A stretch of DNA of 64,000 nt from an uncultured Gammaproteobacteria bacterium (GTDB lineage: Bacteria; Patescibacteriota; Patescibacteriia; 2-01-FULL-39-33): contig CAZHYS010000003.1 of assembly GCA_964536975.1 (NCBI GenBank), positions 15,419 through 79,418 on the forward strand. The letters run 5' to 3'. The notes beneath the pieces were generated by a model, which saw only the letters and a program-made list of their open reading frames with translations, was not told where the DNA came from and ran no database searches. The translations under genes and the position numbers were made by a program. Positions 7,728-62,830 of the stretch are shown here, piece by piece. Position 1 is the stretch's first letter, and each line of letters begins with the position of its first letter.

Positions 7728-7833
7728 GCCCCCCCTCCTTGTTTGAAGGAGGGGGAAGGGGGGAGGTTTTAAAGTATTAAAATTAGGTTTATTCTAACCC
7801 TCTCCTATCCTCCCCCTTCAGACAAGGGGGAGG
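7728..7833. repeat. two copies of the CCCCTCC...GGAGGGG hairpin repeat
   Basis: Copy 1 is ccccctccttgtttgaaggagggggaaggggggagg. Copy 2 is cctcccccttcagacaagggggagg. Confidence 0.7.
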
Positions 7834-7919
7834 AAAATAAGGTGAAAAGAATCAATGATTATTATAAGTATTATTGTATCATAAGTTTATTATTTTAGCT
7901 TAAATTAAGCGTAAAGTCA

Positions 7920-8712: not shown

Positions 8713-9057
8713 ATCAATAAGGGTGGTCGCTAGTGGAGTCGCTTGCCTCGCCGAAGCTTTGCGAAGGCGGGAACCACTATTCCTGGACAGCGCTGGATGC
8801 TTACTATGGTCGCATCCATCGACGCTCTCCCGAGAATTCGGGATCGCTTCTGTCCGTCTCGTCAGCTATGGCTGACTTCGACCCTTCCCGATTCATCGGG
8901 ACGCTCTTTCTTTCCGTGACGCTAAGCGCGGCATTAATGGAATTGTTATGAAAGTGTGGTCGCTAGTGGAGTCGAACCACTGACCTTCCCGATTCATCGG
9001 GACGCTCTTTCTTTCCGTGACGCTAAGCGCGGCATTAATGGAATTGTTATGAAAGTG
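8713..9057. repeat. tandem and dispersed duplications of the tRNA-Val 3' end (100-bp unit x2 plus a diverged third copy)
   Basis: The 28-nt tRNA 3' end tggtcgctagtggagtcgaaccactgac occurs at 8958-8985 and in the real gene at 9058-9085. The unit 8885-8985 is repeated at 8986-9085. A partial copy lies at 8723-8741, next to a tcgccgaagctttgcgaaggcgg hairpin. Confidence 0.7.
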
Positions 9058-9131
9058 TGGTCGCTAGTGGAGTCGAACCACTGACCTCATCCACGTCAAG
9101 GATGCGCTCTAACCAACTGAGCTAAGCGACC
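9058..9131 (-). tRNA. tRNA-Val (anticodon GAC)
   Basis: The reverse complement reads GGTCGCT-TA-GCTCAGTTGGTTAGAGC-G-CATCC-tTGACgt-GGATG...GGTTCGACTCC...AGCGACC-A. Confidence 0.8.
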
Positions 9132-9182
9132 GTAATACTTATTTTAATAAAATTCTCAAAATAATTTGAAAATAGTGGTCAT

Positions 9183-9452
9183 TCTTTAAATATGCTTGTC
9201 TCGCCGTAGCCTTGGCGAAGGCGGAAGCTAAGCGACCAAATATCTAATTCCGGTAAGTTTTTAAAATTATTTAAAGACGTTGTCTACTCTTTAAATATGC
9301 TTGTCTCGCCGTAGCCTTGGCGAAGGCGGAAACTAAGCGACCAAATATCTAATTCCGGTAAGTTTTTAAAATTATTTAAAGACGTTGTCTACTCTTTAAA
9401 TATGCTTGTCTCGCCGTAGCCTTGGCGAAGGCGGAAACTAAGCGACCGTAAT
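9183..9452. repeat. about 2.6 copies of a 105-bp tandem repeat; each unit = hairpin tctcgccgtagccttggcgaaggcgga + agctaagcgacc (tRNA-Val 5' end)
   Basis: The units start at 9183, 9288 and 9393 and are near-identical. A single a/g difference separates copy 1 from copy 2. Confidence 0.75.
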
Positions 9453-9499
9453 CAAGAGTATCTTAGTAAAAAAATTGCCAATTGTCAAAGATTTTGCAG

Positions 9500-9572
9500 T
9501 AGGCCAGGGTGGATTTGAACCACCGACATCTACGTTATAAGCGTAGCGCTCTAACCCCTGAGCTACTGGCCC
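9500..9572 (-). tRNA. tRNA-Ile-like (anticodon TAT)
   Basis: The reverse complement reads GGGCCAG-TA-GCTCAGGGGTTAGAGC-G-CTACG-cTTATaa-CGTAG...GGTTCAAATCC. The 5-bp anticodon stem CTACG/CGTAG is perfect, so the anticodon reads UAU. Confidence 0.65.
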
Positions 9573-9624: not shown

Positions 9625-9732
9625 GCCCCGCCTGCCCGCCTCGCGTCGGCGCGAGCCGAGGCGGAAAATACTATTCATTATTTTTTTGTCTTTAAACCCC
9701 TCCCTACCCTCCCCTTCGGATAATGGGAGGGA
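9625..9732. repeat. hairpin ctcgcgtcggcgcgag + ccgaggcggaa motif, followed by a CCTCC hairpin repeat (ccctccccttcggataatgggaggg)
   Basis: Both parts are members of the two repeat families seen throughout the window. Confidence 0.6.
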
Positions 9733-9800: not shown

Positions 9801-10946
9801 TTAAATCTTTTTCAGGAAATTATTGATCTCTTCAACAATTTCTCGCTCCGCCTCCACGAGCGATTTTCCAAACAGAGAAAATTTTGCCAAGTCAGCGTTG
9901 CCTTCAGAATTAAATCTTTTCGCCATCTCCCGTGAGTCAATGCTTTTGACGGAATAAAGCAAGCAGTCAATGCTTGTTTTGTTCAAGTCGCTATTTTCAT
10001 AGATGAGAGCGATAATTTCCGTTTTGGGCATGGTGGCAATAAGTTCCTCCACAACATCGGCAACCTCTTCCGGCGTGGTGGAAGTCTCCAAGAAATCTTG
10101 GCGGGAAATAGTGGACCAGACGACACGGCCATTGTCTTCGCTGTTGAGTCGCGAGAGTATCCGCCCCCACAATTTCAGGGTGGACAAAAATCGAGTTTGG
10201 TATAAATTTTGGATGATTTGCTCGCGCCGAGCTCCGCTAGCGATAAGTAATCCGGCCAGATTGAGAGTTCGCGGGGTTACTTCGGCGGTTTTAAAGTTTT
10301 TAGTCGCGCTGATTACGCCTGCTAGCAGGCTGGTGGCGATATTTTCATCAATCAGGCGTTCGTCCATATCCTTCACCAGCTGATAGACGATTTCCGAAGT
10401 TGAGGCGGCGGATAGATCGGTTAGGTTGATATCGCCATAATGCTCGTTTTTGTTGGAGTGATCCAAATTGATTTTTGGCGTGGCAAAAAAGAAATCGGAA
10501 TTTTTTTTGTATACGTCGCCAAGCGATTCCAGGTCAGGCGTATTGAGTAGAAAAATCAGATCGTATTTGAAGTCGGCGGCGGCAGTAGTGACATTTTGAT
10601 CTTGGAGTTTTCCTTCTTCTGGCGTAATATAAAAATTCAGTCGCCCATCCTCGCGGTCGTAATAAAATTCACCGACTTTTATCTGAGCCGTATCCACGCT
10701 AACAACGAATTTTTGGAGATTTTTGAGTTGGTTTTTGATTTTGTCCAGCGGTAGGAACGATAGGCTCGGTTTCGGCCGAAAATCCTGGCAGACAACGTCA
10801 ACGTTTTTTCCCATTTTTTCCAGTGCTTGCGCCAACGCCAAGCCGGCGGCGATGGCGTCGCCAGTCCATTCTTGCCGGAAAGCGACCATGATCGCTCGGC
10901 TTCTTTTGATTAGCTCCAATGTTTGCTGGGTTGGATTCAAGGCCAT
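9801..10946 (-). CDS. DHH/DHHA1-family phosphoesterase-like protein (NrnA-like; catalytic motifs look partly degenerate)
   Basis: The N-terminus AIMVAFRQEWTGDAIAAGLALAQALEKMGKNVDVV aligns to the DHH domain. It reads LDHS instead of DHH, and the GGGH-like motif is weak. Confidence 0.55.
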   Translation of the reverse strand: MALNPTQQTLELIKRSRAIMVAFRQEWTGDAIAAGLALAQALEKMGKNVDVVCQDFRPKPSLSFLPLDKIKNQLKNLQKFVVSVDTAQIKVGEFYYDREDGRLNFYITPEEGKLQDQNVTTAAADFKYDLIFLLNTPDLESLGDVYKKNSDFFFATPKINLDHSNKNEHYGDINLTDLSAASTSEIVYQLVKDMDERLIDENIATSLLAGVISATKNFKTAEVTPRTLNLAGLLIASGARREQIIQNLYQTRFLSTLKLWGRILSRLNSEDNGRVVWSTISRQDFLETSTTPEEVADVVEELIATMPKTEIIALIYENSDLNKTSIDCLLYSVKSIDSREMAKRFNSEGNADLAKFSLFGKSLVEAEREIVEEINNFLKKI

Positions 10947-23509: not shown

Positions 23510-23800
23510 CATTTTCCTCCCCCTTTACAAGGGGGAGGTAGGAGGGGGTAAATTAATTATGATATTTACCTCAATTACCCCTCCCTAACCCGTTCCTGGG
23601 CAGAGCTAATCGCTCCCAATGGTCGCGATTATCTACGCTCGCTTCGCATCGCTTCTGCCCGTCCTTCGGACCCCTTATAAATGGGAGGGAAAGAATAATC
23701 GTAAACAATGCTAACAATTTTTATAATTAAATTTTTAAAATTTTATTTCTTTACTCGTCTCGCCGTAGCCTTGGCGAAGGCGGAAGCTACGCGGACATAA
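23510..23800. repeat. CCTCC hairpin repeats (23516-23549, 23671-23690) and hairpin + cgaaggcggaagcta + tRNA-Arg(TCT) 5'-end copy (23752-23795)
   Basis: The string ctcgtctcgccgtagccttggcgaaggcggaagctacgcggac matches the tRNA 5' end (g)agctacgcggac at 23432-23442. Confidence 0.65.
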
Positions 23801-23994
23801 TGATTCTCTTAGAAAAAATAACTGTAAATAACTGTCAAAACCAAAAAGAATTCTATAGGGCATAAATCATGATAACAGTTTTTTGGGCAAAAGTCAATTG
23901 ATTTTTTTCGGATTATCTGGTAAAATTTGTTTGTTCAAAAGAGGGGGCATAATGTTGGCAGAAACACCCTCCAAATATAAATTAACTCCCAAAT

Positions 23995-30759: not shown

Positions 30760-30763
30760 AATT

Positions 30764-30797
30764 CCCTCCCCTTTACAAGGGGAGGGAAGGGAGGGGT
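30764..30797. repeat. CCTCC hairpin repeat copy
   Basis: The sequence is ccctcccctttacaaggggagggaagggagggg. Confidence 0.7.
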
Positions 30798-34926: not shown

Positions 34927-35225
34927 GATGGCTAGTTTATAAAGTTAGAAAGTTTTTAAAGTTTATAAAGTAAATATATTTTGTAATCAGTAATAGTAAT
35001 TCTATAAAAACACCCATTCTGAGCACTCGGGATGGGTGTTTATTAGTGTTCTATGTTTCGTGATTTATGTTTCGTGATTTCCCGAGTCGCGAGTTACGAG
35101 TTCCGTTACCGATTACCGATTACTGATTACCATCTTACAGATGGTTCGGCTTCGCTCACCACAAGCTTTATAGACTTTATGACTTTCGACTTTCGACTAT
35201 CTAATATAATTCAACGGATTGACGC
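34927..35225. repeat. word-like short tandem repeats (tttataaagt, cgtgattt, acgagt, taccgattac, gactttcgac) plus a terminator hairpin
   Basis: Repetitive 8-12-mers recur here. Hairpin cacccattctgagcactcgggatgggtg at 35017-35044. Confidence 0.6.
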
Positions 35226-36643: not shown

Positions 36644-37549
36644 ATGGATCAAGAAAAAATCAGCCAAAATATTATTCAGATAGTCTGCTATTTTGACCTG
36701 TTTGACTATCCTTTGACAGCAATAGAGATTCATAAGTGGCTGCCGGTCAAGGCGGGTTTGGCCGAGGTGGTCGCGGCTTTGAATTCATCCTGGTTTAATG
36801 GCAAAATTGATTGCCGCGACGGCCTGTATTTTCTTTTCGGTCGCCATGATTTGCCGGCCTTGCGCGGTCGCCGCTATCTCTTGGCTGAACGGAAATTCCG
36901 TCGGGCGATTTTTTTGGCAAAAATTTTTTCCCATTTTCCTTATATACGCGCGATCGCGATTTCCGGATCGCTTGCCTATTCCAATGCCCGGCCGGAGAGC
37001 GATATTGATTTATTCATCGTCGCCGCCAAGGGTCGGGCTTGGACGACGCGGTTTTTTGTCAATTCTTTTTTGTCTGTCTTCAATCTGCGGCCGCGTGGCG
37101 ACAATCGCCGCGACAAGATCTGCGCCAGTTTTTTTGTCGCCGCCGACGGGTTGGATTTGAGTTTTATCCGGCATTACCGCGAGGATATTCATTTTGCCTA
37201 TTGGCTGTCGCAGTTTGTTTTTTTGTTTGGCGATGAGGCCGGATTTTTTGCCGCCAATAGCTGGCTGGCCGATTGTTTGCCGAATTTTTATCCTTTCTCT
37301 CTTTCCGCCCGCCGCCGGCTTTCCGGTCGCGCTCTTAGTTGGGACTGGCTAGCCGCCTGGCTGCCAGAAAATTTTTTTCGCAAAATCCAATTGATTATTT
37401 TGCCTCGCCGATATTTGGCGCTCGCCGCCGCCGGCCAAGATGTGGTTTTGTCGGACCAAATGATCAAGATTCACACCGGCGCCAAGGGCCGGCAGGTGGC
37501 AGAAAGGTTAGCGCAAAAAATTGAATCAATTATAAAATCAAATGGATAA
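36644..37549 (+). CDS. nucleotidyltransferase-domain protein
   Basis: It has the minimal NTase motif GSLAYSNARPESDIDLFIV. Confidence 0.55.
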   Translation: MDQEKISQNIIQIVCYFDLFDYPLTAIEIHKWLPVKAGLAEVVAALNSSWFNGKIDCRDGLYFLFGRHDLPALRGRRYLLAERKFRRAIFLAKIFSHFPYIRAIAISGSLAYSNARPESDIDLFIVAAKGRAWTTRFFVNSFLSVFNLRPRGDNRRDKICASFFVAADGLDLSFIRHYREDIHFAYWLSQFVFLFGDEAGFFAANSWLADCLPNFYPFSLSARRRLSGRALSWDWLAAWLPENFFRKIQLIILPRRYLALAAAGQDVVLSDQMIKIHTGAKGRQVAERLAQKIESIIKSNG

Positions 37550-38924
37550 TCTTCGCAAAATAATTGACGGTCTGGTTTATCTTTTCGTCTTTTTACTGCC
37601 TTGGCAAACCGTTTGGATTGTGGAGGAAAGATTTTTGGGCGGCGCCAAGTGGCAGGCCGGCACAGTCGCTATTTACGGCACGGAGATCTTGTTGTGGCTG
37701 ATCATTATTTTGTCGTTGGTCGTTTGGGCTAAAGAAAAAAACAACAAAATGTCTTTTGATTCTTTCCGATCATCTATTACCAATCACTATTTGCCCGTCA
37801 CTGGTTACTCGTTGCTAATTTCTATTTTCCTTCTCTGCTCCCTCCTCTCAATTTTTTGGTCCGGCGATAAGCAGTTGGCGCTCTATTGGTGGATCAAGCT
37901 GGCTGAAGGCATCGTGCTATTTTTTGTTGTTTCATTCGGACGTCTCCGCGTCAGAAAAATCTGTTGGCCGCTCGCTCTATCTGGCGCTGTCCAAGGCGTT
38001 TTGGCGATTTGGCAATTTTTGGTCCAGGAAGTAGCGCCTAATAAGTGGCTCGGCTTGGCCGCGCATTTGCCCGCTGAATTGGGAACGGCCGTTGTGGCCA
38101 CATCGGACGGCCGCTGGCTTCGGGCTTATGGCGCTTTTTCTCATCCGAATATTTTGGGTGGATTTTTGGCAATTAGTTTTTTTGCCACCCTTTTTTTGTA
38201 TCTGAACTATCGTCCCGGCGGCCGGAAAATTATATTAGCGTCGTCTTTATTGGCTATCTCCGGCGGATTATTTTTCAGTTTTTCCCGCAGCGCGTGGCTA
38301 GCGGCAGTGACGGCTTATGGCGTATGGCCTATGGCGTATGGCCTATGGCGTATGGCCTATGGCGTATGGCCTATAGCAAATAGCAAATGGCAAATGGCCG
38401 GCAACAAAAAATTTTTGGAAATTATCAAACCGACATTGTATCTGCTTTTTGTTTTTTTGGTTTTATTCTCTATTTATCGCCCGCTGGTAGCGGCGCGCGT
38501 CGTTTCCAGTGACCGATTGGAGATAAAATCCGTTCAAGAGCGGCTAGACTCTGTTGCTAACGCCGAGCAAATGGTTAAAAGTCATTGGCTTGCCGGAGTT
38601 GGCATCGGTAATTATACTTTTTCGCTTCATCAAAAGAATCCCGGCTTGCCCGCCTTTGCCTATCTGCCGGCGCACAATCTGTATCTTTTGATCGCGGTCG
38701 AGCTGGGCCTGGTCGGCAGCTTGATTTTTCTGGCGATAATCGCATCTTTTTTTCTGTCCGCTTGGCGCCGATCACCCCGGGAGTTTTGGCCGGCAATCTT
38801 TCTGGCGATAATTTTGATCTTGGGCTGTTTTGACCATTACTTTTGGACCAGCTATTCCGGGCTCATGCTATGGTGGCTGACAGCGGCGCTAATTGTAAAA
38901 AAAGAGCCAGATAGCGGCTCTTGA
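37542..38924 (+). CDS. O-antigen ligase/polymerase (Wzy_C)-family membrane protein with an in-frame tandem-repeat insert
   Basis: It is polytopic and has a Wzy_C-like loop. A 14-bp tandem repeat sits at 38306-38396. Confidence 0.55.
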   Translation: MDNLRKIIDGLVYLFVFLLPWQTVWIVEERFLGGAKWQAGTVAIYGTEILLWLIIILSLVVWAKEKNNKMSFDSFRSSITNHYLPVTGYSLLISIFLLCSLLSIFWSGDKQLALYWWIKLAEGIVLFFVVSFGRLRVRKICWPLALSGAVQGVLAIWQFLVQEVAPNKWLGLAAHLPAELGTAVVATSDGRWLRAYGAFSHPNILGGFLAISFFATLFLYLNYRPGGRKIILASSLLAISGGLFFSFSRSAWLAAVTAYGVWPMAYGLWRMAYGVWPIANSKWQMAGNKKFLEIIKPTLYLLFVFLVLFSIYRPLVAARVVSSDRLEIKSVQERLDSVANAEQMVKSHWLAGVGIGNYTFSLHQKNPGLPAFAYLPAHNLYLLIAVELGLVGSLIFLAIIASFFLSAWRRSPREFWPAIFLAIILILGCFDHYFWTSYSGLMLWWLTAALIVKKEPDSGS

Positions 38925-39304: not shown

Positions 39305-39441
39305 ATAATTAAATCGCAAATTAAATATCTTCTCTTTGTCTGAAGGAGACACCTCCATTCCCCCCCCCTCCTTGTCTGAAGGATGGGGGCGGGGGGAGGT
39401 AAAATCAATAATTACAATTAAAATTAAAAATTATAAATTAA

Positions 39442-41085
<1,644 letters not shown>

Positions 41086-41139
41086 GTATTAGTCCAAAGT
41101 TTATAAAGTTATAAAGTTCATAAAGTCAGGATTTGGAGG

Positions 41140-41480
41140 TGTAGGGGCGGGCAGCAGTTCCCCCTCCTTGTTTGAAGGAGGGGGTAGGGGGAGGTAGGGA
41201 AGGGATATTTTCCGACAACTCCTCCGCCCGAATCCGTAGAAGACGGGGCATGCCCCGTCTTTTTTGGTGTTATTATTGTTTTACCGCGGCGGACTTGGCA
41301 ATCCTATTTCCATACTGTCATCCCGACTAAGTCCGCCACGGCGGACGCATAGAGGGATCCCTCGGCTGCGCATTTCAATCGGGATCGCCATGGTTGTCCG
41401 TCCCAAAGACTCACAATAGCAGTATTTGCCGATTCCACGGATTATAATGTTTATCTGCCGTCGCGGATTCGTAGATTTGT
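41140..41480. repeat. composite repeat: about 110-bp CCTCC-hairpin element (also at 62570-62745), gacggggcatgccccgtc palindrome (also at 56955), and gtcatcccga...gggatccctcg / tccgccacggcggac elements (also at 63240-63600)
   Basis: The stretch 41146-41262 aligns with 62586-62700. The shared core is gttccccctcct..aggagggggtagggggaggt.gggaagggatattt.ccgacaa...cgtaga.gacg. Confidence 0.7.
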
Positions 41481-41574
41481 AATTAATTCGTAGATTTGTG
41501 GGGGATCAATGTTCCATTTTTTGTAATTTCATGCTATAATATTCTAAACTTCGCTAAAAAATAATCCTTAGCGT

Positions 41575-44001
41575 ATGACCAAGAGGTTGCCACTTTTTAT
41601 CCTGCCGATTTTGATGTTGGGAGGATTTTTTGTTTGCGCGGATTTCGCTCGCGCCGCTGATTATGATATTACCGGTACGGAAGTTTGGGAGGGCGGGCAG
41701 ACCATCGTCGTTGACCAGCTTCTAAGCGTCAATGTGACCGGCAAGTTGACTATCAAGCCGGGGACACTGATCAAGATGGGTGAGGGCGCGGCGATTATTG
41801 TTCGCGGCGAATTGATTATTGAAGGCGCGGCCGACAATCCGGTGGTAATCACTTCGCTCAAAGACGATAGTATCGGCGGTGACACCAATGGCGACGGCAG
41901 TGCCACTGTGGCAGCACCCGGCGATTGGTGGACTGTCGCCATCGCCTATCCGACGTCCAAATTTTTTGCTGATTACACGGTCATTCGGTACGGCGGCGGA
42001 CTAAACGGAACCATTGACAGTGTGATCATGTCCATGTCGGCCCAAGAAGTGAAGATAGACCACAGCACTATCGTTGACAACGCCGGCACCATCAGCAATC
42101 GCGTGGATAATTTTCATCTCAATAATTCCAATGTTTACGCTTTTTACGCCGACGAAGGCGAAATGAGCGGCATCAACAACACCGGCGAAGCGGCGATTGA
42201 TTTGACAAATAATTATTGGGGACATCCGGACGGCCCGACGACCGTGGCGGATTATATAAACGGCGACATCAAGGGGACGCTTGTAATGGGCGAGGCAAAT
42301 TATGAGCCGTACAACAGCGAAAAAATAATTTATTCCCGCCGGATTGATCCGGTCATTGTCATTCCGGGAATTTTGGGAAGCTGGAAAGTGAATGGCGAGT
42401 GGCGGTTGGACCCTATCTTGGGTACCTACAACAATCTGATGGAGGCGTTTATCTCCGCCGGCTACTATGAGCCGACTTGGGCAAATTGGCTCTTGGGTCG
42501 CAAGCCGACCCTATTTGCTTTTCCGTATGACTGGCGGCAGGACAACGCTATCACCGCGGATATGCTCAAGGAAAAAATTCAGGAGGTGAAGGAGAAATCC
42601 GGCCGCGACAAAGTGGATATTGTCGCGCATTCAATGGGCGGACTGGTGGCGCGGGCGTACATACAGAGCGACGATTATCAAAACGATGTGGATCAGGTGA
42701 TTTTTCTCGGCACGCCACATTTGGGGTCGGTGGATAGTTACAATAGAAGAGAAGGTGCTTATTTTGGAAATAAACCAATAGATTTTTTATTTAAAACAGT
42801 TTTTCAATTAGAGGCCAATGCCAACGGCTATTTGAGCTTGGTTGACTATATTAGAAATGAAGTGCCGACGGTCGGCCAATTATTGCCGATCTATGATTAT
42901 CTGAAAGACAAAACCGCCGGCGTTTGGCAACTCCGAAGCTATCCGACCAATTATCCACGAAATGAATTTTTGGAAGGCCTCAACTCCGCCGACAGGTTGT
43001 CGCGTTTGACCCAGCGGACAAATGTCACCAATATCATTGGTAATATAAGTGAAGGCACCTTGCGCTATATCCGAGTCGTTCCCGACCCAAATACCAAGGA
43101 CAAACTGTGGCAATACGGCTATCCGGAAAATCTGCGGGACAATGAAAATTCTTTTGAGTCGGCAGACGGCGACGGCACTGTCTCTGCCAACAGTTCTAAT
43201 GCGATTTCCGACGCGCGCATGATTGAGCTGTCCGGCGATCATCTGGCGCTCCCCACTCTCGCCCAGCAGGATGTGATTGAAGCTTTGACTGGCCGGCGGC
43301 CGACCGCGTATCTTGATAACGCGCAAGCTTACAATGCCCGCCGTTGGACTATTTTGCGGGTGTATTCGCCGGTGGATTTCGTGGTTATTGATCCGCTTGG
43401 CCGCCGCGTGGGCAAGGATTTTGCCAATAGCACGACGACCAATGAGATTGCCGGCGCGTTTTATACCGGCTTTGACAGCGAAGTGGAATTTGTCGCCATT
43501 CCCGATCCCGTGGACGGCGAGTATCGGGTGGAGCTTCAGGGTGTTGATGGCGGTGGCGAATACAAGCTGGCAGTGAGCTTTGTTGACGAAGATAATGCGT
43601 CTCTTAACAGCGAAGCGGAAGTGAAGTCGTTTATCGCCGCCGGCGCCGTTGATAGCTTCACGGTTGATTATAGCGCGTCTTCTACCGCCGAGCCGTCTTT
43701 TGAGTCGGAAGTTGATTTTGCCAAGTTGATAGATATTACCAATGCTCTATACGAGCAAAAGGAGATAGCCAAAAAAGAAATTTACAAGATCTTGATCAAT
43801 GATTTCCGCCAGCTGGAGAAAAACTACAATCAAATGGATGGCAAGCACAAGCTCAAAGATAAAATCTTGGAAAAATATATCATCGTCCGCTTGGAAATTA
43901 TCAAGAAAAGCCTGGAGCTGTATCAGCGCCATAAATGGATTTCTACTACCGCCAAAAATGTGCTCGTTTCAAATATAAATTTGTTAATTAATAAATTTTA
44001 A
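41575..44001 (+). CDS. secreted alpha/beta-hydrolase (lipase/PGAP1/LCAT-like GxSxG: VAHSMGGLVARAY) with N-terminal beta-helix-like domain
   Basis: It has a signal peptide, an N-terminal repeat-rich domain, a Ser hydrolase motif and a C-terminal coiled coil. Confidence 0.6.
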   Translation: MTKRLPLFILPILMLGGFFVCADFARAADYDITGTEVWEGGQTIVVDQLLSVNVTGKLTIKPGTLIKMGEGAAIIVRGELIIEGAADNPVVITSLKDDSIGGDTNGDGSATVAAPGDWWTVAIAYPTSKFFADYTVIRYGGGLNGTIDSVIMSMSAQEVKIDHSTIVDNAGTISNRVDNFHLNNSNVYAFYADEGEMSGINNTGEAAIDLTNNYWGHPDGPTTVADYINGDIKGTLVMGEANYEPYNSEKIIYSRRIDPVIVIPGILGSWKVNGEWRLDPILGTYNNLMEAFISAGYYEPTWANWLLGRKPTLFAFPYDWRQDNAITADMLKEKIQEVKEKSGRDKVDIVAHSMGGLVARAYIQSDDYQNDVDQVIFLGTPHLGSVDSYNRREGAYFGNKPIDFLFKTVFQLEANANGYLSLVDYIRNEVPTVGQLLPIYDYLKDKTAGVWQLRSYPTNYPRNEFLEGLNSADRLSRLTQRTNVTNIIGNISEGTLRYIRVVPDPNTKDKLWQYGYPENLRDNENSFESADGDGTVSANSSNAISDARMIELSGDHLALPTLAQQDVIEALTGRRPTAYLDNAQAYNARRWTILRVYSPVDFVVIDPLGRRVGKDFANSTTTNEIAGAFYTGFDSEVEFVAIPDPVDGEYRVELQGVDGGGEYKLAVSFVDEDNASLNSEAEVKSFIAAGAVDSFTVDYSASSTAEPSFESEVDFAKLIDITNALYEQKEIAKKEIYKILINDFRQLEKNYNQMDGKHKLKDKILEKYIIVRLEIIKKSLELYQRHKWISTTAKNVLVSNINLLINKF

Positions 44002-44006
44002 AATTT

Positions 44007-44402
44007 ATGAAAATAAATTGGTCAAAAATTTTAATTTCATATTTTTCGGTGTTAATTTTGGTAGTTTTCTTAAGCTCAGTCGCTGCCATCGTTTTTGCGG
44101 GTAATTTGTATCAGTCTATATTCAGTCCCGTTTATAACTCTGGTTTATTAACCTTAGGAGGAGAAGGTTTGGATACCTTTTTAGGTGGCTTTTTGTTGTC
44201 ATATGCTTTATTATTGCCTTTACTATCATTCCTTATCATTTCCAGTAAAAAATGGATTTGTTGGCTTATTTTTATAATTCCATTCTTATTTTTCTTTTTA
44301 ACTGATAGCAAATGGTTTTCATGCTTCATCATCCTCACTATCCTCGGCGGCCTCATCGGCTGGCTGATTAAGTTGGTTTACACAAAGATCAAAAAACAGT
44401 AA
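44007..44402 (+). CDS. hypothetical 4-TM membrane protein
   Basis: It is hydrophobic and lies 5 nt after the preceding gene. Confidence 0.45.
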   Translation: MKINWSKILISYFSVLILVVFLSSVAAIVFAGNLYQSIFSPVYNSGLLTLGGEGLDTFLGGFLLSYALLLPLLSFLIISSKKWICWLIFIIPFLFFFLTDSKWFSCFIILTILGGLIGWLIKLVYTKIKKQ

Positions 44403-44404
44403 AA

Positions 44405-44790
44405 CCATTTTCCCTCCCCTTTATAAGGGGAGGGCAGGGAGGGGTATTATCACCCTGTCCGCCTTTATATTACGAACGAGGGAGCCTTTATAATTCTTCC
44501 CCCTCCTTACGAAGGAGGGGGTAGGGGGAGGTCAGATTAATTTATCCCCCCAATTTTTCCTCCCCTTACCAAGGGGAGGAGCCTGCCCTGAGCGAAGCCG
44601 AATGGGTATCTCCCCCCCCCTTGTTCTAAAGAAGGCATCTCTGTTCTTCCCCCTCCTTACGAAGGAGGGGGTAGGGGGAGGTCAGATTAATTTATTTCCA
44701 CCGCCCCCGCCAAAACCGATTACAATTTTGGCGACCCCTCCTTCGGACAAGGAGGGGTAATAAAAATACGAGGGGAGGGTTTTTTATGTG
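44405..44790. repeat. cluster of at least 5 CCTCC hairpin repeats incl. an exact 54-bp duplication (44504-44545 = 44644-44697)
   Basis: Member sequences are ccctcccctttataaggggaggg, ccccctccttacgaaggagggggtagggggagg (twice), cctccccttaccaaggggagg and cccctccttcggacaaggagggg. The shared motif cctgccctgagcgaagccgaatgg is also at 52150 and 57590. Confidence 0.8.
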
Positions 44791-44805
44791 TAATAGATGT
44801 GATTG

Positions 44806-44841
44806 ATCTCCGGAGATGTCTCCATAGATATCTCCGGAGAT
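44806..44841. repeat. left boundary palindrome atctccggagat-gtctccatagat-atctccggagat
   Basis: It contains two perfect 12-bp palindromes. The right-hand counterpart is at 50951-50974. Confidence 0.7.
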
Positions 44842-44910
44842 TTTTAGTTTGACTTTTGGAGCCGAAAGTGGGAAAATTATGGTATTAATTTAATTCTTGT
44901 TTCCAAAATT

Positions 44911-50053: not shown

Positions 50054-50950
50054 ATGTCCACCTACTACAACCCAAACAGAGACGCCTCTTGGAACTATGG
50101 CGGAAATAATTGGAAATTAAGCCGGTCAAAGATTGATTTGTTTTTGGAATGTCCAAGATGTTTTTATTTGGATAATAAACTCGGCACAAAGCGAGTGCCC
50201 GGATTCCCTTTTTCTATAAATAGCGCGGTGGATTATCTTTTAAAGCAGGAGTTTGATTCCTATCGTGTTAAAAACGAACAACATCCACTTCAAAAAGAAT
50301 ATGGTATAGATGCTCGGCCAATGTCGCACGCCGAGCTGGATGAATGGCGGCGGAATTTTGGCGGCGTCAGATATCTGCACGAACCGACCGGACTGTTGGT
50401 GACCGGCGCGATTGATGATTTGTGGGTGACTATCCCTCCCACCTCCCCTAGCCCCTCCTCGGGCAGGAGGGGAAAGTTAGAATATTCGGCAAACCCCTCT
50501 GTGTCTCCCCTTGGAAAGGGGAGAAAGTCAGAAGATTTGGCAAACCTCTCCGCGTCTCTCCTTGGAAAGGGGGGAAAGTTTGAGCCGGAATGTATTGTGG
50601 TTGATTATAAAGCTACAGCCAAAGATGAGGCCGTAAAGGAATTAGATAAAGAGTGGCAAGATGGCTACAAACGGCAAATGGAGGTGTACCAGTGGCTACT
50701 GCGGAAAAATGGTTTGAAAGTCTCTGATGTTGGTTATTTTGTTTATTGCACCGGCAAAATGGATCGCCAGGCTTTTGACAAGAAGATTGAATTTGATGTT
50801 AATTTAATTGAACATAGAGGTGATGATTCTTGGGTAGAGAAAACTCTTTTTGACATCAAGAAGTGTCTGGACGGCGACGTCATCCCGAAGTCTGGCAAAA
50901 GTTGTGATTGGTGCGCTTATTTCGCGGCCAGAAAAAAATCAGAAAAATAA
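50054..50950 (+). CDS. Cas4-like / RecB-family PD-(D/E)xK nuclease with 4-Cys cluster, carrying an in-frame insertion of CCTCC hairpin repeats
   Basis: The N-terminal CPRCFY and C-terminal CDWCAY form a CxxC pair. The core reads IVVDYK and the QxxxY-like motif is MEVYQWLL. The inserted repeats lie at 50440-50590 inside the frame. Confidence 0.55.
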   Translation: MSTYYNPNRDASWNYGGNNWKLSRSKIDLFLECPRCFYLDNKLGTKRVPGFPFSINSAVDYLLKQEFDSYRVKNEQHPLQKEYGIDARPMSHAELDEWRRNFGGVRYLHEPTGLLVTGAIDDLWVTIPPTSPSPSSGRRGKLEYSANPSVSPLGKGRKSEDLANLSASLLGKGGKFEPECIVVDYKATAKDEAVKELDKEWQDGYKRQMEVYQWLLRKNGLKVSDVGYFVYCTGKMDRQAFDKKIEFDVNLIEHRGDDSWVEKTLFDIKKCLDGDVIPKSGKSCDWCAYFAARKKSEK

Positions 50951-50974
50951 ATCTCCGGAGACATCTCCGGAGAT
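50951..50974. repeat. right boundary palindrome atctccggagac-atctccggagat
   Basis: It matches the left boundary at 44806-44841. Confidence 0.7.
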
Positions 50975-51058
50975 CGCCAGTTGATTTTTGGTGAATAATG
51001 TGAAAAGATTATAATTGGTAAGAATACAATTAATATATTGGTCGGTGATATTTTAATT

Positions 51059-51962: not shown

Positions 51963-52322
51963 GACCTCCCCTACCTCCTTCTCGTATTTTTATTACCCCT
52001 CATTGTTTGAAGGAGGGGTCGTCAAAATTGTAATCAGTTTGATTTTTCCTCCCCCTTGTTTGAAGGGGGAGGACAGGAGGGGGTGAAAAAATATTAATTA
52101 GACCTCCCCTTACCCCCTCCTTCAGACAAGGAGGGGGAAAAGATGCCAGCTCGGCTTCGCTCAGGGCAGGCTCCCTCCTCCATCCGCCAAAGGCGGACAA
52201 ATGGACAAGGAGGGGGAATAAATCCTGTATCTTTCCCTACCCCCCCCTCACCCCTAATTTTTAGCCCCTAACCCCTAATCGTTAAACGCTAACAGCTAAT
52301 CGCTAATTGCTAATCCCTGTCC
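51963..52322. repeat. cluster of CCTCC hairpin repeats + ctaatcgctaattgcta word repeats (left flank of helicase gene)
   Basis: There are at least 4 hairpin copies, and ccctaacccctaatcgttaaacgctaacagctaatcgctaattgctaatcc runs up to the ATG. Confidence 0.75.
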
Positions 52323-52324
52323 AA

Positions 52325-53992
52325 ATGACCCAAAACGAAGCGTTGGAAATTTTGAAGCTCGGCCACAATGTTTATCTCACCGGTTCGGCCGGCAGTGGCA
52401 AGACATATTTGCTCAACAAGTATGTCGGTTTTTTGAAATCCGCCGGCGCGTCAATCGGCATCACCGCTTCCACCGGCATTGCCGCCAGCCACATCGGCGG
52501 CGTCACCATTCATTCCTGGGCCGGCATCGGCATCAAGGATCGGTTGTCAAAAGGCGATCTCTCCGACTTGCGGCGCAACAACCGAGTGCATCATCGGCTG
52601 GCCAAGGCTGCGGTTCTTATTATTGACGAAATATCAATGCTGGATGCCAAGCGGCTGGATTTGGCGGATATAGTTTGCCGCCGGCTGCGTGAAGACGACC
52701 GGCCGTTCGGCGGCTTGCAAGTGGTGTTGTGCGGCGATTTTTTCCAGCTCCCGCCGGTGAACCGCGGCCCGGGAAAAACCGATTTCGCCCCCGCCTCGGC
52801 GGCTTGGCAAGAATTGGATTTGAAAGTCTGCTATCTGACCGAACAGCATCGCCAGACCGATGACGGCTTTTTGAAAGTTCTAAACGACATCCGCTCCGGC
52901 CTCGCCAATGACGAGACCAAAAAGATTTTAGCCAGCCGGCAGGATCGCGAACCGGCTGGCGATGTTTTTGCCACCAAGCTTTATTCGCACAATTTCAATG
53001 TTGACGCGGTTAATGATTTTCATCTGGCGCAAATAGACGAAGAATCAAGAGTGTATCCGATGTCCGGCTACGGCTCTCATCGGCTGATCGCCGATTTGAA
53101 AAAGAGCTGTCTGGCCAAGGAAGACTTGGAGCTCAAAGAGGGCGCCGCCGTGATGTTTGTCAAAAATAATTTTGAAGAGGGCTACACCAACGGCACGCTC
53201 GGAACGGTGGTCGGCTTTGACGAAGGGAGCGGTTATCCGGTAGTGCGGATAAAATCCGGCCGGAAAATAATCGCCTCGCCGGTTTCTTGGGCGTATGAAT
53301 TGGACGGCGAGGTGATAGCGGTCATCCGCCAGGTTCCCCTGCGATTGGCTTGGGCGATTACCATTCATAAGAGCCAAGGCATGAGCTTGGACGCGGCGGA
53401 AATTGATTTGAGCCGATCATTTGAACGGGGGATGGGCTATGTCGCCCTCTCGCGCGTGCGGTCGCTCTCCGGCATCAAGCTGCTCGGCCTCAATGATTTG
53501 GCGATCAGGGTAAACGAAGAAATACTTCGGCTGGATCAGGATTTGATGGCGCAATCGGAAACGCTCGCGGCCCAGATGCGTGCGGCTGATGGGGCGGAAA
53601 TCGGGGCGAGGCAGGCCGCTTTTTTGCGCGCCATTTCCTCGGCCGATGGGGAGAACAAAGGGGAGAGCAAAAAGGCTTCGCCCAAAAAAGCCAAAGGCGA
53701 AACATACCAAGAGACGAAAAAATTGGTGTTGCAAAAAATGTCCCTTGCCGATATGGCCGCCGCTCGCGGCCTGGTTGAGGGGACGATCATCAGCCATTTG
53801 GAAAAATTGTCGGCCGGCGACAAGCAGCTGGACTTAGATTATTTGCGGCCGGACAGTGATCGATTGGAAACGATCGGGGCGGCGTTTAAAAGGACTGGCG
53901 ACATCGCCCTGGCGCCGGTCCGCGATCTGCTTGGCGAGGATTTTTCTTTTGAGGAATTGCGTTTGGCCAGATTGGTTTTGCGCTTGCTTTAG
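52325..53992 (+). CDS. PIF1/RecD-family (AAA_30) ATP-dependent DNA helicase
   Basis: It has the Walker A motif GSAGSGKT, motif II LIIDEISM, and a C-terminal Pif1 2B/HTH-like region. Confidence 0.75.
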   Translation: MTQNEALEILKLGHNVYLTGSAGSGKTYLLNKYVGFLKSAGASIGITASTGIAASHIGGVTIHSWAGIGIKDRLSKGDLSDLRRNNRVHHRLAKAAVLIIDEISMLDAKRLDLADIVCRRLREDDRPFGGLQVVLCGDFFQLPPVNRGPGKTDFAPASAAWQELDLKVCYLTEQHRQTDDGFLKVLNDIRSGLANDETKKILASRQDREPAGDVFATKLYSHNFNVDAVNDFHLAQIDEESRVYPMSGYGSHRLIADLKKSCLAKEDLELKEGAAVMFVKNNFEEGYTNGTLGTVVGFDEGSGYPVVRIKSGRKIIASPVSWAYELDGEVIAVIRQVPLRLAWAITIHKSQGMSLDAAEIDLSRSFERGMGYVALSRVRSLSGIKLLGLNDLAIRVNEEILRLDQDLMAQSETLAAQMRAADGAEIGARQAAFLRAISSADGENKGESKKASPKKAKGETYQETKKLVLQKMSLADMAAARGLVEGTIISHLEKLSAGDKQLDLDYLRPDSDRLETIGAAFKRTGDIALAPVRDLLGEDFSFEELRLARLVLRLL

Positions 53993-54077: not shown

Positions 54078-54232
54078 ACCTCCCCCTACCCTCTCCTTTC
54101 CGCCCAAGGCGGACCGGCTACCCAGGAGGGGGAAGAAATATGGAATTTTTCCCTAATCGCTAATTGCTATCCTAAACGCTAATCGCCAACTCCTAACTCC
54201 TAATTCCTAACTCCTAATTTTTAACCCTAACC
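54078..54232. repeat. CCTCC hairpin + ctaatcgctaattgcta word repeats (right flank of helicase gene)
   Basis: The right flank has cctccccctaccc...tccgcccaaggcggac...ggagggggaag and then ccctaatcgctaattgctatcctaaacgctaatcgcc. Confidence 0.75.
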
Positions 54233-54234
54233 CC

Positions 54235-57582: not shown

Positions 57583-57690
57583 CACTCCCTATCCCGTTCG
57601 GCTTCGCTCAGGGCAGTCTCCTCCCCTTAGTAAAGGGAGGGGAGAACGGCCCCCAAATAAGGGATGGCAGGAGGGGTAAGGGAGGTTTTT
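57583..57690. repeat. CCTCC hairpin repeat copy with shared cggcttcgctcagggcag motif
   Basis: The sequence is ccctatcccgttcggcttcgctcagggcagtctcctccccttagtaaagggagggg. Confidence 0.7.
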
Positions 57691-59661: not shown

Positions 59662-60018
59662 ATGATAAACAGTTACAAAGATTTGATAGTTTGGCAAAAA
59701 GCCATGGATTTGGTTGTTGCTATTTATAGTTTAACTGAAAAATTTCCTTCTTCGGAGGCTTATAATCTAACTTCTCAAATTAGACGTTCGGCCGTATCAA
59801 TTCCTTCAAATATAGCAGAGGGCAGAAGAAGGTCTGGAGTTAATGAATTTCGCCATTTTTTATTTATTGCTTACGCTTCCGGAGCGGAATTGGAAACACA
59901 GATTGAGATAGCCAGGCGGCTGTCTTTTGGAAAAAACCTTGATTTTAATAAAGTCGATGAATTATTAAATGAAGTAATGAAAATGCTCAATAAAATAATT
60001 GGCACTCTTCAATCCTAA
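59662..60018 (+). CDS. four-helix-bundle protein (TIGR02436; '23S rRNA intervening-sequence protein' family)
   Basis: The sequence DLIVWQKAMDLVVAIYSLTEKFP...QIRRSAVSIPSNIAEG is characteristic. The gene is flanked by agctaatcagct direct repeats. Confidence 0.75.
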   Translation: MINSYKDLIVWQKAMDLVVAIYSLTEKFPSSEAYNLTSQIRRSAVSIPSNIAEGRRRSGVNEFRHFLFIAYASGAELETQIEIARRLSFGKNLDFNKVDELLNEVMKMLNKIIGTLQS

Positions 60019-62421: not shown

Positions 62422-62424
62422 AAT

Positions 62425-62830
62425 TAGTTTATAAAGTCTATAAAGTTCATAAAGTTTGTAAAGTCAGGAACTAGGAGTTAGGAATTAGCGTTTAGCGATT
62501 AGGGGAAAATGCAATAATTATAAAGTCAAAAGCCTATAAAGTTCGTAAAGCTTGTGGTGAGCGAAGTCGAACCATCGGATGTAGTGGCGGGTAGCGGTTC
62601 CCCCTCCTGGTCAGGAGGAGGGGGATAGGGGGAGGTTGGGAAGGGATATTTCCGACAATGCCCCCGCTCGATTCGTAGAGACGCGATTCATCGCGTCTAT
62701 AGTAGAGATGTTCCGATCCCGAGGACTCGGAAGGGGCGCCTCTTTTTGTTTATGGTTGGGGATTTCTTAGGGATGGGGCTCTTGTCTCGCCGTAGCTTAT
62801 GCGAAGGCGGATGCCCCCGTCTGGTTTGAC
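62425..62830. repeat. word repeats (ataaagt), second copy of the about 110-bp CCTCC-hairpin element, gacgcgattcatcgcgtc palindrome, and tctcgccgtagcttatgcgaaggcgga hairpin variant
   Basis: The stretch 62586-62700 aligns with 41146-41262. Confidence 0.7.

Follow-up and report, generated by a model that had tools for sequence, protein, structure and literature searches.

A dense family of putative class II intrastrand triplex repeats in a Patescibacteria genome

The DNA analysed here, a stretch of 64,000 nucleotides (nt) of contig CAZHYS010000003.1 that is called the window throughout, carries about 22 short G/C-rich repeat units. We put at roughly 0.8 the probability that they form, within the Patescibacteria lineage, a family of G/C-rich class II intrastrand triplex motifs (TM), of the BoxC, PIT or TM_ECO kind. 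Read along one strand, a unit consists of a pyrimidine arm (Y), a loop of 3-11 nt, a purine arm (R) that is the Watson-Crick complement of Y, a linker, mostly of 0-4 nt, and a further purine arm (H) with the mirror sequence of R; CCCCCTCC..GGAGGGGG-TA-GGGGGAGG and CCTCCCCC..GGGGGAGG-TA-GGAGGGGG may serve as examples. In the inverted doublet at 7728-7833, CCCCCCCTCCTTGTTTGAAGGAGGGGGAAGGGGGGAGG is followed by a 32 nt AT-rich spacer, and then by CCCTCTCCTATCCTCCCCCTTCAGACAAGGGGGAGG. A preliminary description of the window had listed 13 loci of near-identical hairpins, each with a bracketed tail (gtagggggagg). Hairpin and exact-pattern searches found the repeat at all 13, in at least 6 arm variants rather than in near-identical copies. 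The tail is indeed present, but its mirror relation to the purine arm, which makes it the defining third arm, had gone unrecognised.

Repeat units and their arms

Exact matches to CCCCTCC-N4-20-GGAGGGG number 8 in the window, against 0.00 expected from 100 dinucleotide shuffles, and 17 perfect hairpins of 7 bp or more, with only pyrimidines in the 5′ arm, came out of an unbiased search, touching every listed locus. With a three-arm finder, which demands Y/R complementarity together with R/H mirror compatibility (G opposite G; A opposite A or T), 16 clusters were obtained, compared to a total of 1 over 30 dinucleotide shuffles. Altogether the 13 loci hold about 22 units, a number that is about 0 in shuffles, and these start at 7731, 7799, 9698, 23516, 30763, 39363, 41160, 44412, 44499, 44544, 44649, 44734, 50441, 50493, ∼50545, 51963, 52047, 52102, 52173, 54079, 57619 and 62599. 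Scored one by one for triads out of 8, 12 units reach 8/8, 6 reach 7/8, and about 4 are degenerate.

Chance low-complexity G/C runs, a local duplication or an assembly artefact might be invoked, and by our own estimate a 21-base pattern is expected at a non-negligible rate in very GC-rich genomes. The window, however, has a GC content of 45% and its shuffles give 0 to 1 matches; the copies are scattered across 55 kb, at a density of about 0.3 units per kb; and a 31-base version of the main variant is found in 31 metagenome contigs of 33-69% GC. The repeats also recur in independent assemblies of other sequencing runs, whose contigs end inside them. As these assemblies both reproduce the repeats and break within them, we take the repeats to be genomic. 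On the grounds of shuffles, spread, independent assemblies and metagenome recurrence, this explanation was rejected and has practically no chance of being correct.

Five of the arm variants, given as Y/R/H, are CCCCCTCC/GGAGGGGG/GGGGGAGG, CCTCCCCC/GGGGGAGG/GGAGGGGG, CCCTCCCC/GGGGAGGG/GGGAGGGG, TCTCCCCT/AGGGGAGA/AGAGGGGT and CCCCTCCT/AGGAGGGG/GGGGAGGT. Watson-Crick stems among the 18 good units have 8/8 pairs in 14 cases and 7/8 in the other 4. The first loop shortens to 3-7 nt once TT/AA pairs are counted into the stem, with the exception of the unit at 54079, whose first loop of 28 nt holds a nested hairpin; the second loop is unusually long at 44734 (12 nt) and 44544 (8 nt). The linker is TA, reading G-TA-G, in 7 window units, and AA, CA, CTA or CAC in the others, while TT, CT or CC are found in other genomes. 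Class II intrastrand triplex motifs are defined by ITxF and PIT searches as stems of 6-15 nt with at most 1 mismatch, and loops of 1-6 nt (ITxF) or 0-10 nt (Hoyne et al.). The window units share the complementary Y/R stem, the mirroring H arm, the short loops and the enrichment over random sequence. Prediction of single-stranded DNA (ssDNA) folding covers Watson-Crick pairs only. A pairing of H with Y by Watson-Crick bonds was rejected by inspection of the (2,5) variants, as it yields a maximum of 5 bp after a 3-nt slip.

Co-variation of the arms and the proposed fold

The preliminary description had called for a search for structural co-variation, and it is present in both relations, Y-R and R-H, with at least 6 variants in the window and 20 elsewhere. 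Between Y and R, 8/8 pairs have changed on both sides and 97.3% of the cells of the arm alignment are paired, a level equalled by 0/500 shuffles of the window arms and approached in none of the slid registers. Between R and H, 94.6% of positions are compatible in the mirror register, compared to about 60% in slid or direct registers, and 0/2000 permutations gave an equal value. When only non-G positions are considered, 22 of 27 are matched in the mirror register, against 1-3 in slid or direct ones. Opposite an adenine of R, H has A or T and only seldom C, which is the purine-motif (reverse-Hoogsteen) rule of G∗G:C, A∗A:T, T∗A:T (PMC4666352).

Alignment of whole units by MAFFT split the Y arms into two registers, and the arms were therefore extracted and aligned without their loops. 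A first permutation test, limited to the window, was weak (8 perfect matches for 3.5 expected, with a maximum of 9) because one variant dominates there. Moreover, the window arms were triad-maximised and copies share descent, for which reasons unselected copies from other genomes were brought in; they and the position-by-position R-H test bear the weight of the conclusion. Among these, 68 hairpin sides had a perfect mirror arm, compared to 16.9 +/− 3.4 with permuted flanks, and the 68 matches represent 20 distinct R-to-H pairs. Arms matching only as a mirror were 40, those matching only in direct orientation 2. Three-arm co-variation over many variants and phyla, along with A or T opposite A, constitutes evolutionary evidence for a conserved triple-strand geometry, and not just for a hairpin or for G-richness.

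R and H together might provide four G-tracts that fold into a G-quadruplex (G4) once freed from the C-rich arm, and selection might have acted on this G4, or on an equilibrium between G4 and hairpin, instead of on the triplex. Units of the GGGGAGGG-NN-GGGAGGGG type, such as the one at 30763, have the canonical G4 sequence, with loops of 1-2-1; in vitro, related repeats of archaea convert between triplex and G4 (PMC8044849), the E. coli element has been read as a G4-hairpin-duplex (Kaplan et al. 2016, cited in PMC8044849), and a gene for a Pif1-like helicase lies beside two TM arrays. Yet when canonical G4 motifs are taken as four runs of at least 3 G with loops of 1-7 nt, they occur in 3/18 good units (6/18 with 12 nt of flank), whereas 18/18 reach at least 7/8 triads, so that a canonical G4 is not a property of the family. 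Nor would a G4 require that H mirrors R, as the excess of mirror-only over direct-only arms indicates it does, or that A or T stands opposite A, and nuclear magnetic resonance (NMR) of TM_ECO favoured the triplex (PMC4666352). We consider a G4 switch to be an unlikely basis for the family, a G4-triplex equilibrium being possible for the GGGGAGGG-type units.

Under the triplex reading, the G-rich strand, when single-stranded in a lagging-strand template, a transcription bubble or during repair, would fold back twice. Y and R would form a hairpin, and H would then lie antiparallel to R in the major groove, with C.G∗G and T.A∗A (or T.A∗T) triads of the reverse-Hoogsteen type. Such a transient triplex would probably disturb replication and repair and thereby produce local genome variability, and the elements would be mainly selfish or neutral DNA, rather than promoters, terminators or ribosome-binding sites. 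Triplex folding, the selfish or neutral role and the disturbance of replication are what we infer from the literature on the E. coli elements. The class II architecture was shown to be a triplex in vitro by circular dichroism and NMR on TM_ECO oligonucleotides, while no triplex was seen with the duplex form (PMC4666352).

Several points weigh against this reading. As the procedure that chose the window arms maximises triads, the paired percentages are inflated, a bias mitigated by the slid and permuted controls and by the unbiased copies. Since copies in one genome share their ancestry, the counts comprise non-independent events. About 4 units are degenerate, or have linkers or loops beyond the usual limits (12 nt at 44734, 28 nt at 54079). 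The E. coli element showed no protection from dimethyl sulfate (DMS) in vivo (Holder et al. 2015, PMC4666352), so that folding within cells is no more than putative for the whole kind, and triplex folding of the window sequences themselves is presumed from the E. coli family. Finally, the strict TM_ECO consensus CCCTCNCCC-N3-6-GGGNGAGGG-N3-GGGNGAGGG has 0 matches in the window. Because this consensus is not respected, the window units appear, from their sequence, to be a different family of the known triplex-repeat kind, distinct from TM_ECO itself.

Triplex repeats have reportedly been known since BoxC in the 1990s, with folding shown in vitro, and the BoxC literature is said to comprise a 1999 survey by Bachellier et al., Hoyne et al. 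2000 (J Mol Biol 302:797) and Hoyne & Maher 2002. The BoxC repeat of E. coli became the PIT element (Hoyne, Edwards, Viari, Maher 2000) and later TM_ECO (Holder et al. 2015, PMC4666352). According to the latter work, E. coli elements are intergenic, without strand bias and without promoter or terminator activity; some of them form inverted pairs, always of two different types; the elements mark hypervariable loci, with local instability around them; and many bacteria, among them Microcystis, Thermus and Enterobacter, are reported to have G/C-rich class II motifs (PMC4666352). The window family resembles BoxC/PIT/TM_ECO by its class II order of Y, loop, R, loop and H, by G/C-rich arms with one or two A.T positions and A or T in H opposite A, by its intergenic position and many copies per genome, and by two-type inverted doublets in hypervariable surroundings with no associated transposase. 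TM_ECO differs by its 9 nt arms CCCTCNCCC/GGGNGAGGG, its second loop TTA or CCG, its proteobacterial host, as opposed to a bacterium of the candidate phyla radiation (CPR) here, and its 23 copies per E. coli K-12 genome, as opposed to the density given above. It is also reported as always intergenic, whereas window units are found in arrays and as an in-frame insert in a coding sequence as well.

Motifs defined with ITxF fall under the same search definition (6-15 nt for stems, 1-6 nt for loops, no more than 1 mismatch); their frequency greatly exceeds that in scrambled genomes, and their copy number is patchy between close relatives. In the available text of the ITxF paper and its supplement, Patescibacteria are not mentioned, the CCCC(C)TCC/GGAGGGG(G)/GGGG(G)AGG family is not named and CCCCCTCC does not appear; a literature search returned no paper linking Patescibacteria and intrastrand triplex motifs. 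Repeats of Methanomicrobiaceae made of a putative quadruplex sequence and a C-rich tract (PMC8044849) are similarly interspersed and intergenic, with two G-rich segments and a complementary C3TC3-type arm, and in vitro they show an equilibrium of hairpin, antiparallel triplex and G4 (PMC8044849). They differ in having the C-rich arm at the 3′ end (class I), in their archaeal hosts, and in having been found as G4 motifs. H-DNA mirror repeats are comparable in that R and H form a homopurine mirror repeat, as a purine-motif triplex requires; H-DNA, however, arises from a duplex mirror repeat under supercoiling, whereas here Y is on the same strand and the fold would be fully intrastrand. A family as dense as about 0.3 units per kb stands in a reduced CPR genome, where useless repeats are expected to be purged.

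Insertion, distribution and transcription

The GroEL protein of the window belongs to Patescibacteria, close to Candidatus Buchananbacteria. A sister species has a GroEL 89% identical and is syntenic with the window from PNPase to groESL; no TM unit was found in about 20 kb of its syntenic DNA, loci L128 and L130 included. The groES-groEL spacer aligns cleanly to these two loci, except for a 61-nt insertion (39338..39400, + strand) that contains a degenerate TM at 39363-39398 and a partial hairpin copy. This supports the idea, already in the preliminary description, that the family behaves as inserted DNA. The insertion lies between ...CTTT and AAAA..., and no target-site duplication was found at that site. 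The dksA-lspA spacer is too diverged from the sister species to define insertion ends. Strains with identical GroEL differ inside the 39363 unit, by a C-run of 9 versus 4, an altered R arm and an H arm lacking its A, and the remainder of the spacer differs at only two positions between them.

A second insertion is found within a coding sequence, as the preliminary description had noted for one cluster. The PD-(D/E)XK nuclease gene 50054-50950 contains three tandem TM-like units of 51 nt (17 codons) at 50426..50593, in frame and on the opposite strand (−), of which those at 50441 and 50493 have 8/8 triads. DNA alignment to the homologous loci L126 and L127 indicates that 21 nt of a native loop gave way to the units, which lengthens the gene by a net 147 nt (49 aa), in the hairpin that joins the catalytic strands AIDDLW and VVDYK. 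The 49-residue segment is absent from over 100 homologues, all of 248-251 aa. The insert translates as PSPSSGRRGK.../SPLGKGRK.../LLGKGGK. We conclude that the units are lineage-specific insertions, variable between strains, which form inverted doublets and arrays. Clean filled versus empty sites against a sister species, and an in-frame insertion in a nuclease gene, are new here.

Lineage-specific insertion would also be expected of repeats of the repetitive extragenic palindromic (REP) or REPIN type, which would be folded ssDNA palindromes moved by a RAYT or an IS200/IS605-type HUH transposase with its gene outside the window, in which case the third arm would act as guide or recognition segment and not as a triplex strand. 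REP, BIME and REPIN elements are likewise short palindromic intergenic repeats, often in inverted doublets and with lineage-specific expansions; inverted doublets of about 70-100 nt are frequent here (7731/7799 in the window, and many other loci), and the R-H linker reads GTAG in 7 window copies. REP-type elements are, however, defined by a hairpin, a conserved GTAG and a cognate RAYT, and have no extra mirror arm. GTAG is not conserved in the present family, being found only with the TA linker; no transposase, RAYT (Y1) or integrase domain was detected in the 60 open reading frames (ORFs) of the window scanned with Pfam; and a hairpin with a tetranucleotide leaves the 8-nt mirror arm that co-varies with R unexplained. 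As to miniature inverted-repeat transposable elements (MITE), units are 33-36 nt long without terminal inverted repeats, and the flank at the groES-groEL site is not duplicated. The REP/MITE-like identity of the preliminary description is thus not upheld, and mobilisation as a REP or REPIN element seems to us distinctly unlikely.

The family is not confined to the window, which the preliminary description would have taken as the sign of a local duplication: other genomes, metagenome contigs and viral contigs carry copies. In a set of species-representative genomes, CCCCTCC-N5-11-GGAGGGG-N1-5-GGGGAGG gave at least 120 matches. Among the matches listed are Alphaproteobacteria, Nitrospirota, Thermodesulfobacteriota, Planctomycetota, Bacteroidales, Chloroflexota, Omnitrophota and three Patescibacteria. 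The motif recurs in IMG/VR viral contigs too, where the matches listed are likewise a minimum. By our estimate, some lone matches in very GC-rich genomes could be due to chance; multi-copy loci and doublets cannot. Two metagenome loci (L147, 1184-10661; L154, 4006-8873) have 10-12 units in about 12 kb, mostly as doublets in which a GGAGGGG/GGGGAGG unit stands beside a GGGGAGGG/GGGTGGGG unit. The rule of two types per doublet is the same in these loci, in the window doublet 7731/7799, and in E. coli. On two viral contigs, IMGVR_UViG_3300008255_004712 (L189) and IMGVR_UViG_2936130024_000001 (L239), 6/6 and 5/5 units respectively are on the coding strand, in short gaps after genes.

Inside the window, the left half of the doublet (7731..7766, +) is CCCCCTCC/GGAGGGGG/GGGGGAGG with 8/8 triads and a hairpin predicted by ssDNA folding, and the right half (7799..7834, −) is of the mirror type TCCTCCCC/GGGGAGGA/AGGAGAGG with 7/8. 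Single units are found at 9698..9732 (−, 7/8), downstream of the minus-strand DHH gene 9801-10946 (Pfam DHH), at 23516..23548 (+, CCTCCCCC/GGGGGAGG/GGAGGGGG, 8/8), and at 30763..30795 (+, CCCTCCCC/GGGGAGGG/GGGAGGGG, 8/8), 4 nt past a dksA-like stop. Two 95-nt composite repeats, 73% identical, follow groEL (41140..41234, +, TM core 41160-41194, then the GGGAAGGGATATTTTCCGACAA module) and the pyruvate phosphate dikinase gene (62580..62674, +, core 62599-62634), both with 8/8 triads. The unit at 54079..54132 (−, 7/8) holds a further hairpin, TCCGCCCAAGGCGGA, inside its first loop, and a degenerate TM with a CGGCTTCGCTCAGGGCAG leader (57583..57690, +) is followed by the mirror pair GGAGGGG-TAA-GGGAGG. 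The three additional modules mentioned in the preliminary description are all present: CGGCTTCGCTCAGGGCAG in 3 exact occurrences, TCCGCC(A/C)AAGGCGGAC at 52183 and 54099, nested in repeat loops, and GGGAAGGGATATTT(T)CCGACAA at 41197 and 62637. A 9-nt repeat, AAAGTTnAT, forms runs just past gene ends at 34949-34984, 41104-41130, 62424-62468 and 62529-62555, two of which are immediately upstream of the 95-nt composites.

The placement proposed earlier, intergenic, at island borders and once in a coding sequence, agrees with these positions, except that single units come more often after a stop than before a start. Those singletons of the window that stand beside a co-directional gene lie on its sense strand, mostly 4-75 nt past the stop, and being upstream of the real terminator on that strand they are transcribed. 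One may thus think of an element acting in RNA, as a 3′-UTR stabiliser, a processing site, an attenuator or a Shine-Dalgarno mimic, and the two viral contigs with only sense copies after genes go in the same direction. Their strict orientation is not general over all loci: pooled sense versus antisense counts are 23/21 for genome loci, 7/6 for metagenome loci and 23/43 for viral loci. As orientation is unbiased or reversed, a general role in mRNA is unsupported, and so is the structured sense-strand RNA that had been suggested. The corresponding sites of the sister species are free of the element, RNA strands are reportedly excluded from purine-motif triplexes (Semerad & Maher 1994, cited in PMC4666352), and the E. 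coli element has neither promoter nor terminator activity (Hoyne & Maher 2002, cited in PMC4666352). No H arm is found at Shine-Dalgarno distance from a start codon, contrary to the earlier proposal; that of 39392-39400, for instance, is 48 nt before the groEL start. We hold a function in RNA to be very unlikely.

A role as terminator was rejected, since a classical hairpin terminator follows each composite: an intrinsic one with a T-run at ∼41240-41267 after that of groEL, and a terminator-like hairpin at ∼62679-62698 after that of the dikinase gene. The sister species has an ordinary terminator after groEL. Rfam at gathering scores matched only tRNAs in the whole window, leaving the repeats unmatched, and an E-value search of 41080-44900 gave a single sub-threshold chance match, SmY. 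On the practical side, the units break short-read assemblies, and can be miscalled as G-quadruplex motifs, terminators or small ORFs.

Arrays, the bracketed island and other features

Two arrays of units were found. The first (44412..44778, +) has 5 TM units, at 44412, 44499, 44544 (minus), 44649 and 44734, with a CGGCTTCGCTCAGGGCAG module; the second (51963..52222), upstream of the Pif1-like helicase gene, has units at 51963 (−), 52047 (+), 52102 (−) and 52173 (+, degenerate). Their portions 44456-44772 and 51981-52199 are imperfect inverted copies of each other, collinear, with matches of 60 nt at 92%, 48 nt at 83%, 42 nt at 83% and 32 nt at 75%. They make up the left and right arms of a long inverted repeat, which brackets a 7.2-kb segment of low GC (32-40%). 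The clusters at island borders of the preliminary description do therefore flank a low-GC island. The segment encodes an HSDR_N/N6-methyltransferase, a GmrSD_N protein, a RiboL-PSP HEPN protein, and TaqI_C-like, PD-(D/E)XK nuclease, NYN and MazE-like proteins. Either a defence island has entered a palindromic array, or it is a unit with terminal inverted repeats. Searches for an island lacking the flanks and for longer contigs of this strain yielded only short Logan contigs ending in repeats; the island-arm sequence had 0 matches in viral contigs.

The three-way co-variation across many phyla and viral contigs could be taken to mean that the triplex fold is selected in vivo, the arrays being hot spots of structure-dependent recombination or integration in this CPR genome. 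This would suggest that the island, with its type IIG-like methyltransferase and its GmrSD, HEPN, NYN and PD-(D/E)XK proteins, was captured at the centre of a palindromic array or, alternatively, that the inverted arrays of about 300 bp are the ends of a mobile or invertible unit handled by a structure-specific enzyme. We judge this reading as a whole improbable.

The Pif1-like helicase gene (52307-53992, Pfam PIF1) is directly beside the right array. Pif1 helicases unwind G-rich structures, and this proximity may or may not be a coincidence; a look-up of the Pif1-like protein of the window returned no record. Telomere-like CCTAAC(C)CCTAA repeats are present on both sides of the gene, at 52246-52295 and 54192-54234. 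Within the island, perfect palindromes ATCTCCGGAGAT at 44805-44843, upstream of the methyltransferase gene, and at 50949-50975, after the nuclease gene, could be operator or recognition sites.

The window contains a second, unrelated repeat family with the core CTCGCC-N-GGCGAAGGCGGAA, at 1624-1661, 8883-9084, 9150-9464, 9629-9666, 23754-23801 and 62781-62828, with a tandem duplication of 101 nt and three tandem copies of 105 nt in the interval from tRNA-Val to tRNA-Ile. The tRNA-Ile (9499-9572) has the anticodon TAT, which is uncommon in bacteria, where AUA is usually decoded by a modified CAT tRNA. A 14-nt tandem repeat, GGCGTATGGCCTAT, occupies 38298-38395, inside the Wzy_C (O-antigen ligase-like) ORF 37542-38924. 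Lastly, the ORF 59662-60018, flanked by the genes for pyruvate kinase and pyruvate phosphate dikinase, matches the 23S rRNA intervening-sequence protein family (PF05635).

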